Of a DNA stretch of 58,779 nt, positions 35,986-56,906 are shown piece by piece. The notes beneath the pieces are model-generated. The model saw only the letters and a program-made list of their open reading frames with translations, was not told where the DNA came from and did no database searches. The DNA lies in the IMG/VR virus record IMGVR_UViG_3300022851_000005, positions 1 through 58,779 of that record. One strand, written 5' to 3'. The stretch is from a virus. Lineage: Duplodnaviria; Caudoviricetes. How positions within the stretch are numbered: the stretch's first letter is position 1; every line of letters starts with the position of its first letter. The translations under genes were made by a program, and so were the position numbers.

Positions 35986-37794
35986 TTAATATCCGAACAC
36001 GCTATCAGCGGGCTCTTGGTATTCTGATTTGAATCGTGCCATCCTTTGCATATGTCCTTCCATTCTAGGTCGGCTCATTATAAGATACCTTAAGGCATCA
36101 TAGGCATGATCTGGCGCATTAGTATCTACATCCTCTGGATCGTTCTTAGCAGAGGGTAGAGCTTGTAATTCTTTTATAAGGTTTGGGCAAGATGAGAATA
36201 TTTGCATCTTAGGTCTTCCAGTAGTGGCTATTGCTAACCTCTCATGGAATTGTATCTTACCAGCCTTTCTGTTTTTATCAGCTCTTCTTAGCTTATGTCC
36301 CATAGATACTAGTACTTCACCAACTGTAGGGCCTTTAAAGCCTCCTCCAGATTGATTCCATGCTGCACCGTCTAGGACTCCTTGGACACTCCTTATGTCA
36401 GGAAGTTCCATCTCTCTCATTATAGCACCTAATTGAGAACCTGTCAAGCCTTTTTTGTATAATTCTCTATATATAATCAGGGTGCCGTCTTCTGGATCTA
36501 CTGCTGCCCATATACAGGCGCTCTCAGCGGCATAGCCATAGTCTACTCCTTTATACCTTTCCCAATGAGCAGGTAGTTCAAATGGAGGTATTACATGAGA
36601 TGTAGGGTCAAACTCAGGAAAAGCTGCTCCTTCAGTAACGTCCCAGTTACCTTCTAGTAACTGTTGTCTTAATACAGGAGGCAAAGATGCTAATGTCATC
36701 TCATACTGCCCTGAGTCTAAGTAGGGGTTATCCTTTAGCTTTGAAGGGATAAAGCGCCTAGTTACATACATGATACTACCATCTAGCATCTTAACAGGAC
36801 TACCAAAGGTCTCATTAGCTGGTGCAGGGTCAATGAACATCTTCTTAACCCAATGCCCTCCTGCTCCTCCGGGGTTAGCTGTAGCTCTCATAGCCACTTC
36901 TATACCTGTACCCGAAGCGTCACGTAAACGACTGAATAGATAATTCCAGCAGAATGCAGTAGGCCACTGAGTTAATTCATCAAAGCCTATCCAAGTATAT
37001 GCTTGCCCTTGATACCTATAGACATCACTATCCTTTTCACAGAAACCAAACTCTAATTTAGCCCCTGAAGGGAATGTCCATGTGTTCGTCATTATTTTAA
37101 AAACAGAACCCGGAAAAGCTTTACGATATAACTCATGGGATTTATCAATTAATTCCCTCAGCTCAGGCATAGTACGTCTAATAAGGAGGGCTTTAGCATG
37201 TTTGAAGCTCATTTGTCTAAGAGGGTCTACTAGCATACCATAACTTTTACCTCCTCCTGCTGCTCCTCCAAATAAGACTTGAAGTTCTCCTGCTGATAAG
37301 AAGTCCTCTTGAGGCCCTTTATTAGCTTTAAAGACAATCTCAGATTGGTTCTGAGCTAGTTGATCTCTTACACTCTGAGGAAGTCTATCAAGCTCTTCAT
37401 GAGATACTATACTATCTTTAGCATTACCATCTAGACGAGCTAAAGCATTCTCTTTAGTCTTTATCTTACTAGCTGCTAATTTTACTTTAACCTGTAAAGC
37501 TGCCTTTACTTTCTTTTGTTGTCTTAGTTGAGCCTTAGCATCTTTCTTAGCCTGATCAGAACTATGAAGTATATTACCTCTACTACCATACTTCTTACCG
37601 GGGCGTCTTTGAGGTTCTCCATTTTTCTTTAATTTAAATTTACCCTCTATATCAGTAATATATAGTTCAGGGAATAGCTCCCATAGAGTAATAGAAGGGT
37701 CAGCCTCTAGGATTCTAAACTCAGAGGTCTTTATGTCTTTAAGGTCTTTAAGGAGTATTTCCTCTACTGTAGGTTTAATCTGGATACTCTCCAT
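35986..37794 (-). CDS. terL: Terminase large subunit with long N-terminal extension
   Basis: GGAAGGGKS, IGFDELT, ATANPGG, GVDYG, DHAYDALRY. Confidence 0.95.
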   Translation of the reverse strand: MESIQIKPTVEEILLKDLKDIKTSEFRILEADPSITLWELFPELYITDIEGKFKLKKNGEPQRRPGKKYGSRGNILHSSDQAKKDAKAQLRQQKKVKAALQVKVKLAASKIKTKENALARLDGNAKDSIVSHEELDRLPQSVRDQLAQNQSEIVFKANKGPQEDFLSAGELQVLFGGAAGGGKSYGMLVDPLRQMSFKHAKALLIRRTMPELRELIDKSHELYRKAFPGSVFKIMTNTWTFPSGAKLEFGFCEKDSDVYRYQGQAYTWIGFDELTQWPTAFCWNYLFSRLRDASGTGIEVAMRATANPGGAGGHWVKKMFIDPAPANETFGSPVKMLDGSIMYVTRRFIPSKLKDNPYLDSGQYEMTLASLPPVLRQQLLEGNWDVTEGAAFPEFDPTSHVIPPFELPAHWERYKGVDYGYAAESACIWAAVDPEDGTLIIYRELYKKGLTGSQLGAIMREMELPDIRSVQGVLDGAAWNQSGGGFKGPTVGEVLVSMGHKLRRADKNRKAGKIQFHERLAIATTGRPKMQIFSSCPNLIKELQALPSAKNDPEDVDTNAPDHAYDALRYLIMSRPRMEGHMQRMARFKSEYQEPADSVFGY

Positions 37795-38518: not shown

Positions 38519-38547
38519 GTCTTAATTGCAAATAAATAAGAAATACC

Positions 38548-38576
38548 TTGACAAATCCTAAATCTACCTGTATACT
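38548..38576 (+). promoter_or_regulatory. sigma70 promoter firing into the non-coding repeat region
   Basis: TTGACA-17-TATACT, back-to-back with the terS promoter. Confidence 0.75.
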
Positions 38577-38712
38577 ATGGTAATCATGCCTACCAAGCTT
38601 GAATCTAATTATAGAGTAACTATATAGCCCTATATAGTTCTATAAATCCTACTAAGGCCCTATAAGACTCCCTCAGTCCTATAGGGCCTTATTCGTTATT
38701 ATTATCTAATCT

Positions 38713-38820
38713 AGATACTCTACTACCTTTAAGCCCCTCAGATACTCTACAGCTACTCTACTACCTTTAAGCCCCTTAGGGACTATAAAGCCCCTCAGAT
38801 ACTCTACTACCTTTAAGCCC
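38713..38820 (+). repeat. Three copies of 21-bp TACTCTACTACCTTTAAGCCC
   Basis: Copies begin near 38716, 38754 and 38800. Confidence 0.85.
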
Positions 38821-38906
38821 ACAACTTGACACTTCTAATTATTCTAATCTTACACGACCACTAGTATATATACGTGTATGTGCCCATGTGCACCTGCCCG
38901 CCCCCT

Positions 38907-39290
38907 AAGCCCCTAAGGGCTTCAGAGCACTCCTCAATCCTTTAAATCCCACCATCCAGAGCTATAGAGCCCTTAAGGGCTACATGTGCTACATGCGCTA
39001 CGTAGACTATAGAGCCCTTTTAGGGCTAAATGTAAAGTAGACTTGACTTTTTAGACTACGAAGCCCTAAAGGGCTTAGGGTATATTTAGCCTCCCTAAGA
39101 TCCCTAAGGATCTCAATAGCTTATAGCCTTTAGGCTAAATCGTAGCAATCCTAGCTATTCCTTACAGGAATACATAGACTATTAAGCCCTTTAAGGGCTC
39201 TATAGCGCGTAATAGCCCTTTAGGGCTCAATAAGGCTTTGAAGCCCTTAAGGGCTCTATAGCGCGTAATAGCCCTTTAGGGCTCTATAGC
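38907..39290. repeat. Array of AGCCC-N4/5-GGGCT palindromes
   Basis: Eight copies (about 38908, 38968, 39013, 39062, 39185, 39214, 39242, 39270) plus AGCCTTTAGGCT at 39125; the last four form a roughly 43-bp direct repeat. Confidence 0.9.
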
Positions 39291-39412
39291 GCACGATAGA
39301 CCGAAGGTCTTTAGAGACTTTTCAGCCCCTAACTTTCCCCTTTCTCCTTTCTTCATGTGTTCTCGCAGGAGTATCGAAGATACCGCGTGAAGAATCACCC
39401 ACCAGAAAAGGC

Positions 39413-39440
39413 TTGACAAATTCCAGAAGCATGGCAATCT
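39413..39440 (+). promoter_or_regulatory. Probable first early promoter
   Basis: TTGACA with TGn-CAATCT at 16-nt spacing, upstream of the first + arm gene. Confidence 0.5.
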
Positions 39441-39488
39441 ACATCGGCACCACAAATTTCGACCAGCCAATTCCGGCTTTTACCACTT

Positions 39489-39938
39489 ATGAGTACATAT
39501 GACATGACAAACGTAAACGTAGTTGCCTTAGCCGACCTTCCTGATTCAGTTAACTTCAGATTCCCTAAAGGGAATAAGGAGTACATGATACTTGCCCTTG
39601 ATGGTGACACTGTTAGCTATGCTAACCCTGATAAGCCTGATAGTGTTTACACTTGCCCAGCAAGCCATGACGTAGTGGCCTTGAAAGAAGGCGTAGCCTT
39701 TCGTAAAGTGAGCAAAAAGGGTAAATTATCTGCGAAGCAAGCTCGACCAGCGTTTAAAAAGGTGATCACTGCTAAGCAGCGTGAAGCGTCCATTAAGGGC
39801 ACAACACATGTATCGGACTTTAAAGTCCTTGAGGCACGAGTCGCCTCTTTAGAGTCTGGGCAGTCTCAGATACAAGCGAGTCTTAAGACTCAAAGCGAAG
39901 CGCTCGCTGCAATCCTCTTAGCTGTTACAGCTAAATAA
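39489..39938 (+). CDS. First early protein, hypothetical (basic middle, C-terminal coiled coil)
   Basis: Own promoter and terminator. Confidence 0.75.
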   Translation: MSTYDMTNVNVVALADLPDSVNFRFPKGNKEYMILALDGDTVSYANPDKPDSVYTCPASHDVVALKEGVAFRKVSKKGKLSAKQARPAFKKVITAKQREASIKGTTHVSDFKVLEARVASLESGQSQIQASLKTQSEALAAILLAVTAK

Positions 39939-39944
39939 CCCTTT

Positions 39945-39966
39945 AGGGGCTTCGGCCCCTTTATAT
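39945..39966 (+). terminator. Hairpin terminator
   Basis: AGGGGC-TTCG-GCCCCT then TTATAT. Confidence 0.65.
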
Positions 39967-40005
39967 ACTCACACACTCACACACTCCTTAAGGAGCACAT
40001 GCAAG

Positions 40006-40179
40006 ATGAAATCAGTCATAGCGTCGTTATTAACATTGTTAATAGTTATACTTATGTATTTAGGCCATAGGTGGATAACCGAAGGTCATGGTTTAAACCC
40101 TTCTATTGCCTTTACGATAGTAGGGCTAAGTATAGCCTATTTAGGTGTCATATTCTACCGAGACCTGTTTAGGCATTAA
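40006..40179 (+). CDS. Small 2-TM membrane protein, paralog A (57 aa, not in track)
   Basis: RBS aggag; MKSVIASLLTLLIVILMYLGHRWITEGHGLNPSIAFTIVGLSIAYLGVIFYRDLFRH. Confidence 0.7.
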   Translation: MKSVIASLLTLLIVILMYLGHRWITEGHGLNPSIAFTIVGLSIAYLGVIFYRDLFRH

Positions 40180-40247
40180 GAGTCGAAAAGCCCTTAATAG
40201 GGCTTCGTAAGGTGACTAGCCGCCTTATCTGATGATGACAGGCTTAA
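40176..40247 (+). ncRNA. Type II hammerhead ribozyme
   Basis: gtc-GAAA-[agccct taat agggct]-TC-[gtaaggtg actagc cgccttat]-CTGATGA-t-gac; outer ttaag/cttaa; predicted cleavage after C40206. Confidence 0.85.
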
Positions 40248-40263
40248 TTAATAGGAGTAACAC

Positions 40264-40371
40264 ATGATAAATATACGTGTTAAAACAGTCGACCACGATA
40301 CACTAGATGTTTATGCTAAAAGTCTTACCTTTAGTATGGAAGAATGGTGGGAAGGTACTATTACTAAATAA
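40264..40371 (+). CDS. Small hypothetical protein (35 aa)
   Basis: RBS aggag immediately after the ribozyme. Confidence 0.5.
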   Translation: MINIRVKTVDHDTLDVYAKSLTFSMEEWWEGTITK

Positions 40372-40403
40372 CATATTTTGATTTAGAAATTAAGGAGATT
40401 TAA

Positions 40404-40583
40404 ATGAAAACATCTTTAGCTGTACTGTTAACAGCAACAATAATCTACTTAGTACAAGAAGGGCATTTATGGTTAAATACTTTAGGACTAGAAGGGCTAA
40501 ACCCTGCATTCTCCTTTACATTAGTAGGTGTATGTTCAATAGCCTTACTGGTATTAATGCTTAGGGACAAGTCAAGACTATAA
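40404..40583 (+). CDS. Small 2-TM membrane protein, paralog B (59 aa, not in track)
   Basis: RBS aaggag; shares GH.W...GLNP...FT.VG...RD with 40006. Confidence 0.7.
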   Translation: MKTSLAVLLTATIIYLVQEGHLWLNTLGLEGLNPAFSFTLVGVCSIALLVLMLRDKSRL

Positions 40584-40637
40584 TAACATGTATATGCACA
40601 GGACTTTTACATGTGCAGAACTGCGCGCCAAAAGAGG

Positions 40638-40666
40638 TTGACATTGGTTGGCTCACGCTGTAGATT
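40638..40666 (+). promoter_or_regulatory. sigma70 early promoter
   Basis: TTGACA-17-TAGATT, intergenic. Confidence 0.7.
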
Positions 40667-40729
40667 GATTGGGCTGGCCAGAGTTGAGTCCGTAAACTTT
40701 AGACATTAAATGAGATTAAGGGGATTTAA

Positions 40730-40891
40730 ATGTATAGAAAAGTTACGATAACTGTTATCTTAGATGTCGAGGATGAGTCGCATTGTAATAAGGTGTTGAG
40801 AGCTATGCTCAAACCGCTTGATTCAGATACACCTATGCGTCTTTTAAGAGACTACAGCACAGAAGAAGAGTATGAAAATTTTAAAACTTAA
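40730..40891 (+). CDS. Small hypothetical protein (53 aa)
   Basis: RBS aagggga; MYRKVTITVILDV. Confidence 0.55.
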   Translation: MYRKVTITVILDVEDESHCNKVLRAMLKPLDSDTPMRLLRDYSTEEEYENFKT

Positions 40892-40907
40892 ATAATAGGG
40901 ATTTAAT

Positions 40908-41144
40908 ATGAAACCTAGTAAATATATTACTATTAAAGGGGGCTATTATAAGCCTAAGGAAGTCATTGAAGGTAACTATAAGCAGGGTACACTCCTTTTT
41001 TATACTTTCGATGTACTTACTAAAGCTGTAAACGGCACTTATAAGCTCCATACAGGTGGTTATTTAGATGGTATTACTTTTAATGATGAAAGTAAGCTTA
41101 AATTTAAGAAAGACGATGTGGTTATATTAGGAGATTTAGTATGA
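40908..41144 (+). CDS. Hypothetical protein
   Basis: RBS aggga. Confidence 0.6.
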   Translation: MKPSKYITIKGGYYKPKEVIEGNYKQGTLLFYTFDVLTKAVNGTYKLHTGGYLDGITFNDESKLKFKKDDVVILGDLV

Positions 41145-41380
41145 AAGTTAATACTATGGACTTAAGAGTATCTGAAGCAACTGTTATAGATGAAATAAGT
41201 AGAGGACATGGGTTCACTTTTAATGGTAGTAATTACATTAAAATAAATCATAATCAGTCTAAATATTATAACTGTTTAAAGTTACCTGAGGATTTAGATC
41301 TGCAAGGTGATCTAGAAGTATGTAGTATACATACTAGCTCTAGTGTAACCCCATTTAACCTTACATTCGTTATATCTTAA
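41141..41380 (+). CDS. Hypothetical protein
   Basis: RBS aggag; ATGA coupling. Confidence 0.6.
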   Translation: MKVNTMDLRVSEATVIDEISRGHGFTFNGSNYIKINHNQSKYYNCLKLPEDLDLQGDLEVCSIHTSSSVTPFNLTFVIS

Positions 41381-41398
41381 ATAACTAGAGAGTTTAAT

Positions 41399-41557
41399 AT
41401 GCTAACACTATACGATTTAGAAGTAGGCGATACCTTTGTATGCTTAGAAGGTATTTACACTGTAATGCATAATTGGGGTATAGTTAAAGGGGTATTTAGC
41501 AGTTCAGAAGGTATTTTATGGCTTGGTACAGACGTTATGAAGATAGAAAGTGTTTAA
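41399..41557 (+). CDS. Small hypothetical protein (52 aa)
   Basis: MLTLYDLEVGDTF; fills an intergenic gap. Confidence 0.5.
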   Translation: MLTLYDLEVGDTFVCLEGIYTVMHNWGIVKGVFSSSEGILWLGTDVMKIESV

Positions 41558-41600: not shown

Positions 41601-41888
41601 ATGGAACTTAAACAGTTAAAATGTGCTAATTGTGGTAAAGAATTCCTACCTAAAGAGGGTATTATACCTTGTGTTATTATTAACAGTACTCTATGTAGTG
41701 ATGCTTGTAGCCAAGAAGGGCTAGAAATGGCTACAGATATATATGAGCAATTACGTATGTTAATATATAATCCAAAAGAGACTGAAGAGTACTTAAGGTC
41801 TTTAAATGATTACGCTATAGATTGTATTACTCAATACATATCAATTATAAATGATTGTATTGCTGATGAAGGCCCTACTATACACTAA
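41601..41888 (+). CDS. Zn-finger (CxxC...CSxxC) protein, paralog 1
   Basis: MELKQLKCANC...CSDAC. Confidence 0.75.
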   Translation: MELKQLKCANCGKEFLPKEGIIPCVIINSTLCSDACSQEGLEMATDIYEQLRMLIYNPKETEEYLRSLNDYAIDCITQYISIINDCIADEGPTIH

Positions 41889-41955: not shown

Positions 41956-42237
41956 ATGGAACTTAAACAGTTAAAATGTGCTAATTGTAATAATAACTTT
42001 GAGCCTAAAGACGGAGAAACAGGGCTTATTATAACTAGCCCTATATGTAGTATAAAGTGTAGTTTAGAGGCTTTAGATAAAGCTAAGGTTACTTTTAAGA
42101 AGTTAGAGGAGATTAAAGGTAATCCTGAAGCCTTTTCAACGTATTTAGAATCTTTAGATACTTTCTCGATGCATTGTATACTTCAATTAATGGCCTCTTT
42201 ACGTAAAATGTCAAGAGAAAATCATATTGTACACTAA
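41956..42237 (+). CDS. Zn-finger (CxxC...CSxxC) protein, paralog 2
   Basis: MELKQLKCANC...CSIKC. Confidence 0.75.
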   Translation: MELKQLKCANCNNNFEPKDGETGLIITSPICSIKCSLEALDKAKVTFKKLEEIKGNPEAFSTYLESLDTFSMHCILQLMASLRKMSRENHIVH

Positions 42238-56829: not shown

Positions 56830-56906
56830 GGGCCGATAGCTCAGTTGGTTAGAGCTTCTCACTCATAATGAGACGGTCGTAGGTTCAAGTCCTACTCGGC
56901 CCACCA
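56830..56906 (+). tRNA. tRNA with CAT anticodon (Ile2 or elongator Met), CCA encoded
   Basis: GGGCCGA/TCGGCCC acceptor, D-arm GCTC..GAGC, TCTCA-CTCATAA-TGAGA, GTAGG-TTCAAGT-CCTAC, ACCA. Confidence 0.95.

Follow-up and report, generated by a model that had tools for sequence, protein, structure and literature searches.

The stretch of DNA analysed here (the window) is a complete virus record of 58,779 bp with direct terminal repeats, and the phage is an HMO-2011/pelagiphage-like podovirus from salt-lake metagenomes. Its large terminase shares 45-48% identity with the terminases of HMO-2011 and the Roseobacter CRP phages. The window sequence was found in seven runs, all of them salt lake metagenome DNA and none of them RNA; contigs of the DNA runs X3, X4 and X5 were identical to the window wherever they covered it, with those of X4 and X5 covering the motif described below only in part. 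Rightward of two divergent sigma-70-like promoters lies approximately 0.9 kb of ORF-free, repeat-rich DNA, followed by a row of small plus-strand ORFs. The candidate hammerhead is situated between ORFs 2 and 3 of this row (Table 1). The 57-aa ORF on its upstream side (40006-40179) and a 59-aa ORF at 40404-40583 encode small hydrophobic paralogues with 45% identity (E value: 4e-12) and bracket both the ribozyme and the 35-aa ORF that follows it; hence, the ORFs flanking the ribozyme are probably real genes.

An 18-nt box containing TTGACA (AGAAA..CTTGACAAAT) occurs in two copies that are 83% alike, at 38539-38556, where it is part of the plus-strand promoter that matches 11/12 consensus positions, and at 39404-39421, approximately 70 nt ahead of a gene for a 149-aa protein (39489). 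The second copy was not flagged by the promoter scan and may be a second early promoter. On the 3' side of the 149-aa gene, at 39941-39972, CCCTTTAGGG overlapping GGGGC-TTCG-GCCCC-TTTAT gives a terminator-like hairpin that was missed by the simple terminator scan. Further rightward, the adjacent ORFs 41601-41888 (95 aa) and 41956-42237 (93 aa) both begin with MELKQLKCANC and carry more cysteines beyond this point, and the pair resembles a small Cys-rich protein duplicated in tandem. A tRNA gene with a score of 74.2 bits is present at 56830-56903; its anticodon loop, CUCAUAA, gives the anticodon CAU.

Table 1. Features at and around the candidate hammerhead ribozyme (positions in the window).
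Feature	Position	Strand	Basis or remark
Large terminase	35986-37794	minus	61% identity to Pelagibacter phage HTVC115P
Sigma-70-like promoter, strong	38518-38490	minus	12/12 consensus positions
Sigma-70-like promoter, strong, divergent from the preceding one	38548-38576	plus	11/12 consensus positions
Upstream ORF, 57 aa, small hydrophobic protein	40006-40179	plus	stop TAA 40177-40179
Whole type II hammerhead motif (candidate)	40181-40248	plus	custom covariance model R1
Stem II, 5' strand GUC (C40184 = C11.1)	40182-40184	plus	pairs with 40237-40239, 3 bp
Core GAAA (G12 A13 A14 A15.1)	40185-40188	plus	sequence; invariant in alignment A1
Stem III hairpin, 7 bp, loop UAAU 40195-40198	40188-40194 with 40199-40205	plus	closing pair A15.1-U16.1
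C17, predicted cleavage between C40206 and G40207	40206	plus	alignment to family model
Stem I hairpin, 6 bp, first pair G-U	40207-40212 with 40223-40228	plus	within 40207-40228
Pseudoknot strand in loop I, AGCC	40218-40221	plus	complementary to 40241-40244
Core CUGAUGA (C3-A9)	40229-40235	plus	sequence; invariant in A1
Extra U between A9 and G10.1	40236	plus	sequence; common to family
Stem II, 3' strand GAC (G40237 = G10.1)	40237-40239	plus	pairs with GUC 40182-40184
Pseudoknot strand in 3' tail, GGCU	40241-40244	plus	1 nt past stem II, after A40240
Shine-Dalgarno AGGAG of downstream ORF	40253-40257	plus	6 nt before ATG 40264
Downstream ORF, 35 aa	40264-40371	plus	ORF list

A preliminary description of this DNA, based on the letters and a list of ORFs, had claimed a type II hammerhead with a complete core and stems I, II and III, and each element that it named could be read on the plus strand. 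The core positions of the type are all present, namely C3-A9, G12-A13-A14, the pair A15.1-U16.1 (A40188-U40205) and C40206 as H17. The order is also that of type II, in which the 5' strand of stem II is followed by G12-A15.1, stem III, U16.1-C17, stem I, C3-A9, the 3' strand of stem II and the tail. Hairpins close both stem I and stem III, and stem II is open, with zero non-canonical pairs in the alignment to our family model. Stem I can be extended to 8 bp by U40213-G40222 and G40214-C40221, the AGCC strand being within its loop. The pseudoknot put forward in the same description holds as well, as AGCC at 40218-40221 and GGCU at 40241-40244 are complementary over four Watson-Crick pairs at the site given in the type II consensus (PMC3088659). 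Cleavage had been assigned after C40206, and alignment to the family model fixes the predicted position at the same nucleotide.

To retrieve further examples, IMG/VR contigs were scanned for the exact pattern GTCGAAA-N30-60-CTGATGATGAC, which is the stem II/core signature of the candidate. The signature was found in at least 117 viral-contig stretches with at least 149 matches. Each match was subjected to a strict fold test (stem I: at least 4 bp, stem III: at least 4 bp, U then non-G), which 129/149 passed among the matches listed, and several of the 20 failures among these were hammerheads with a single stem mismatch. Among the same listed matches, loop I and the 9-nt tail could form at least four Watson-Crick pairs in 81 of the 129 fold-passing copies, and multiple copies per contig were frequent (seven in L166, six in L120 and four in L143). 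As a specificity control, bacterial and archaeal genome contigs were scanned likewise; only 15 of 123 pattern matches passed the fold test, and these were mostly in MAGs of Firmicutes. Another RNA class was met on one of the retrieved contigs, a RAGATH-28 RNA at L098 3365-3449 on the minus strand (61.7 bits against a cut-off of 45.3), in the company of two hammerheads.

A covariance model, R1, was built from those matches that carry an A after GAC (class A). The 86 class-A matches were reduced to 61 unrelated ones, with no two more than 90% alike, none longer than 82 nt and none from the window, and their alignment (A1) gave a model of 70 positions and 16 pairs that encodes the three nested stems and not the pseudoknot. 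Searched with filters off, the window gave a match at 40181-40248 on the plus strand covering model positions 1-70/70 with 57.9 bits (E value: 5.7e-15), a score that is partly circular because the 18-base retrieval pattern came from the candidate and those positions match by construction. These 18 bases make up a large share of the score, the remainder being supplied by the stems and the tail and by two single A residues, one preceding GUC and one following GAC. The runner-up in the window scored 8.8 bits. Ranked among 146 R1 matches in the window and 99 family loci, the candidate stood 81st, inside the class-A range of 47-75 bits. The earlier type II call is thus backed by a match over the full length of the model, and this, within the class-A scores and with the placement between stop codon and Shine-Dalgarno typical of the family, puts the candidate in the extra-U subclass. 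As read from the retrieved sequences, this subclass has the layout (A)GUC-GAAA-stem III-UC-stem I-CUGAUGA-U-GAC-A-GGCY, with loop I pairing with the 3' tail, and is widespread in phages. A second extra-U type II subclass was also observed, with the layout GGUC-GAAA ... CUGAUGA-U-GACC-AA (L120, L143, L113, L155, L139, L173 and others); its stem I loop is short, no pseudoknot between loop and tail is evident, and copies are often found in arrays.

A covariance-model search had been proposed as a check of the call, and its outcome was divided. The custom model matched as above, whereas the Rfam hammerhead families remained blank up to an E value of 10. At the gathering score, no hammerhead was found by Rfam in the whole window and the only match was a tRNA; at E ≤ 10, no hammerhead family matched the 221-nt and 85-nt slices around the candidate, and RF02276 had zero matches on the whole record. 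The candidate therefore lies outside RF02276 as operationally defined by the gathering score of 37 bits, which is a curated cut-off and not a biological feature. Two look-alikes on the minus strand, CRISPR-DR17 (19.3 bits) and SpF51 (16 bits), were far under their own cut-offs and were discarded. At least a weak Rfam match had been expected, and the Rfam blank taken by itself would make up one half of the outcome named beforehand as refuting, the other half being a lack of self-cleavage in vitro. We do not count it as a refutation of the hammerhead because RF02276 is weak on this subclass. In 10 test loci it gave 12 matches of 40.1-48.5 bits, and its cut-off was reached by 10 of the 30 pattern-matching hammerheads there and by none of the 13 pattern-matching copies in L120, L143 and L113. 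In the RF02276 alignments, the consensus reads GC-GAAA ... CUGAUGA-GC and the U-G of the subclass is handled as a 2-nt insertion, hence many subclass copies are missed.

Covariation was counted in a model-based alignment of 114 matches (111 distinct rows) over the three stems and a six-pair pseudoknot. Among the 111 distinct rows, 92.2% of the cells were paired, against 62.7% in shuffles. Cells in which both partners had changed numbered 679 against 174 ± 13 in the shuffled sets, none of 500 shuffles being as high, and controls with slid partners gave at most 122. In stem II, 102 rows have U-A as the middle pair and nine have C-G. The pseudoknot, which is absent from the model, was 79% paired with double changes at all six of its pairs, for one of which 66 rows have G-C, 26 have A-U and 14 have C-G. 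As these counts exceed both the shuffles and the slid controls, the family is, on the evidence of covariation, a real and selected structure. The compensatory changes were seen at the level of the family; at the candidate's own locus, the DNA runs were identical to the window and no orthologous locus was found. In the candidate, the loop I strand of the pseudoknot is displaced by one position in the 3' direction compared with most members, and at 4 bp its pseudoknot is at the low end of the range for the family. Stem II is followed by a gap of 1 nt, as in 37/104 members, and 7 nt lie between the loop strand and C3, as in 33/104; all three values are common among the members. The second pair of its stem III is A-U and not C-G, a state shared with one other of the 111 distinct rows.

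The extra U in the core had been singled out in the earlier description. There is indeed one U, at 40236, between A9 and G10.1, but it is not unusual, being common to a large phage subclass. Among hammerheads found by R1 and not selected by the pattern, a base was inserted after A9 in 16 and absent in six at loci chosen for the U form, and inserted in eight and absent in 13 at loci chosen for the form without U. In all 24 of the insertions in these not-pattern-selected hammerheads, the base was U. Both forms are present within the same contigs, and the extra U is kept where N7 varies (CUGAAGA-U, CUGACGA-U) and where stem II covaries (GCC/GGC). The earlier statement that single-base insertions are tolerated in some viroid/satellite hammerheads agrees with the case of the CChMVd hammerhead, in which an extra A between A9 and G10.1 is tolerated with a moderately lower rate (PMC3705267, citing De la Pena & Flores 2001). 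When A10 of this viroid ribozyme is changed to U, the trans-cleavage rate rises 3-4-fold, while C or G is strongly detrimental (PMC3705267). The CChMVd (+) ribozyme and the candidate thus share one added nucleotide at the same core position, with U favoured there and the sole insertion here; they differ in that the viroid ribozyme is of type III, belongs to a circular RNA replicon and relies on loop-loop contacts. The extra U is a common and probably benign variant, and is not a defect or something new.

With regard to placement, the motif begins 1-2 nt past the TAA of the 57-aa ORF, and 8 nt separate the end of the pseudoknot from the AGGAG at 40253-40257, in agreement with the original statement that the element spans the distance from the upstream stop codon (TAA 40177-40179) to just before the AGGAG. 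The same arrangement recurs in the family. An ORF stop lies at most 60 nt upstream in 97/114 members against 33% of controls, and a Shine-Dalgarno sequence, start codon and ORF follow within approximately 45 nt downstream in 84/114 against 21%, where the controls were random positions on the same strand of the same loci and the downstream ORF had at least 30 codons. The median distance from stop to motif is -1 nt in the family and that from model end to start codon is 15.5 nt; the candidate has 1 and 15 nt, respectively.

A blastn search of 39400-41400 against 50,697 phage records returned no match, the two flanking early proteins had no relatives in the viral contigs, and relatives anchored on TerL reached an identity of at most 57% among viral contigs and 61% among named phages. 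RF02276 exceeded its cut-off in 0/50 related records, with a single match of 13.9 bits, and the best R1 score in 80 terminase-anchored loci of related phages (748,385 bases) was 15.7 bits. Since none of the 50 related records reaches the Rfam cut-off and none of the 80 related loci matches R1, the hammerhead looks sporadically acquired in the HMO-2011/pelagiphage-like group.

The element may be a hammerhead by descent that is slow or inactive, either a relic or a structure kept for other reasons, such as a pair of stabilising hairpins between cistrons, with little or no processing of the message. The folding results bear on this. The minimum free energy of 40176-40250 (75 nt) in ViennaRNA was -22.4 kcal/mol (z: -2.18); stems I and III were kept, and the junction was closed by GAGUC:GGCUU, a helix that competes with stem II and the pseudoknot. 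The nested hammerhead fold had -20.7 kcal/mol, so the fold with the competing helix was better by 1.7 kcal/mol, and the 4-bp pseudoknot duplex alone contributed approximately -4.2 kcal/mol. In a 261-nt context, all three hammerhead stems were in the minimum-energy fold, where stem III had pair probabilities of 0.5-1.0 (mostly approximately 1.0), stem I of approximately 0.7 and stem II of only 0.22. The competing helix exists in these models but does not clearly dominate. Slow cleavage would also suit a pseudoknot of only 4 bp that is shifted by one position in loop I, as Perreault et al. (PMC3088659) reported a 20- to >100-fold lower rate in their test construct when the pseudoknot was made shorter or moved, and it would suit the zero score in Rfam; moreover, only one copy is present and the 80 related loci have none, so that purifying selection is not demonstrable for this copy. 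On the other hand, all 11 of the 11 conserved core positions are intact, along with A15.1-U16.1, G10.1-C11.1 and C17, and the stems are free of mismatches; these would be among the first losses expected in a decaying element. The 1-nt gap and the 7-nt distance to C3 are inside the family distribution, and the placement is exactly that of the family. We consider a slow or inactive element of this kind unlikely.

A chance look-alike was weighed with a type II descriptor of our own, which allowed zero or one inserted base after A9. Even when it required no more than 3 bp in stems I and III and 2 bp in stem II (relaxed settings), the descriptor matched the hammerhead site alone across the whole window, both strands included. 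That a copy of the repeated GCCCU/AGGGC palindrome, or a terminator-like hairpin, came to lie beside a second hairpin and a CUGAUGA by accident is extremely improbable. In favour of such an accident, the palindrome of stem III has seven further copies at 38969-39282, the window has 16 copies of CTGATGA where 6.0 would be expected, the relaxed descriptor matched in 76 of 1500 dinucleotide-preserving shuffles of the window and Rfam was without a match. Against it, none of the 1500 shuffles had stems I ≥ 5, III ≥ 5 and II ≥ 2, nor the observed I ≥ 6, III ≥ 7 and II ≥ 3, the match reaches past the core to the family-specific A that precedes GUC, the extra U, the A that follows GAC and the GGCU tail with its loop partner, its 57.9 bits compare with at most 15.7 bits in approximately 0.8 Mb of window and related phage DNA, the placement between stop codon and Shine-Dalgarno is that of the family, and the terminator scan left the hairpin unflagged on both strands. 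A reading of stem III as a terminator was rejected on the same scan. As for the CTGATGA heptamer, its expectation in shuffles was 6.0 ± 2.5, with 0/100 as high as the window; 11 of the 16 copies lie in the half with the structural genes, on the minus strand, and the excess is probably an effect of codon usage.

The palindrome deserves attention in its own right. The form GCCCT-N(0-6)-AGGGC occurs in eight copies in the window against 0.12 expected, the hammerhead stem III included, and the likeness of stem III to a palindrome repeated at 38.9-39.3 kb, observed from the outset, is thus upheld. The seven copies apart from stem III have the form GCCCT-N2-3-AGGGC and lie in the ORF-free, repeat-rich region 38600-39320, flanked by the divergent promoters on one side and the first early gene on the other. 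This region also holds a 56-bp unit repeated at 39188-39300 and direct repeats of 27-38 nt at 38713-38834. The spacing of the palindrome arms varies, which speaks for hairpins and against a fixed dimer operator, and the region could function as an origin, contain regulator sites or form RNA leader hairpins. Stem III is freely variable in sequence within the family, and its identity with the palindrome may be either chance, for which a rough estimate is 1 in 500-1000 for a 5-bp arm, or meaningful. A putative phage or host factor that recognises GCCCU-N-AGGGC hairpins, as RNA or DNA, might gate the folding of the hammerhead at stem III, which we regard as very improbable; if true, cleavage between the two early cistrons would be a regulated and not a constitutive step.

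Type II hammerheads, both clustered and single, have been published from between phage genes since 2011 (Perreault et al. 2011, PMC3088659), and the earlier remark that they occur in phage intergenic regions matches this report. According to the consensus given there, the pseudoknot joins loop I by at least 4 bp to the residues just past the 3' strand of stem II in the majority but not all of the examples, and stem II is short, with two base pairs being common (PMC3088659). The candidate resembles this type (PMC3088659; RF02276) in its open and short stem II, closed stems I and III and full core, and also in the pairing of loop I with the 3' tail over at least 4 bp as a pseudoknot and in an intergenic position between small phage genes (PMC3088659). 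It differs from RF02276, which leaves it unscored, in that GUC-GAAA ... CUGAUGA-U-GAC has one more stem II pair and a bulged U. The multi-copy contigs of the retrieved family are reminiscent of the prophage arrangement described in PMC3088659, whereas the hammerhead of the window differs from type II arrays in being a single copy. In a pseudoknot hammerhead of solved structure, the helices are aligned through the pseudoknot as a tertiary contact (Zhan et al. 2024, PMC11300833). The two RNAs are alike in using a pseudoknot as a tertiary contact, but that RNA has its pseudoknot in place of helix II, while a 3-bp helix II precedes the pseudoknot here (PMC11300833).

Taken as a genuine type II hammerhead of the widespread extra-U phage subclass, which we believe it very likely to be, 40181-40248 on the plus strand is predicted to cut itself between two cistrons, in keeping with the published reading. 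The motif would be transcribed within the rightward early message and fold as a three-way junction in which the pseudoknot keeps stems I and II side by side, and the RNA would then cut itself 3' of C40206. Cleavage by hammerheads leaves a 2',3'-cyclic phosphate on one product and a 5'-OH on the other. By this chemistry and the context, the upstream message, with the 57-aa gene, would be left with the stem III hairpin and a 2',3'-cyclic phosphate at its 3' end, and the downstream message, from the 35-aa gene onward, would have a 5'-OH end followed by the stem I hairpin, a few nucleotides short of the ribosome binding site. The two cistrons may in this way be uncoupled in stability or translation, an effect suggested by the context. 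The placement between co-directional ORFs is the basis for supposing that the early polycistronic mRNA could be processed without RNase III.

The locus brings little new biology in so far as type II hammerheads between phage genes are already known. In the natural copies examined, the inserted residue after A9 is always U, which agrees with the mutational result from the viroid ribozyme (PMC3705267). Rfam RF02276 misses the copy in the window wholly and two-thirds of the subclass in the 10 test loci, hence the counts of phage hammerheads that are based on Rfam are too low.
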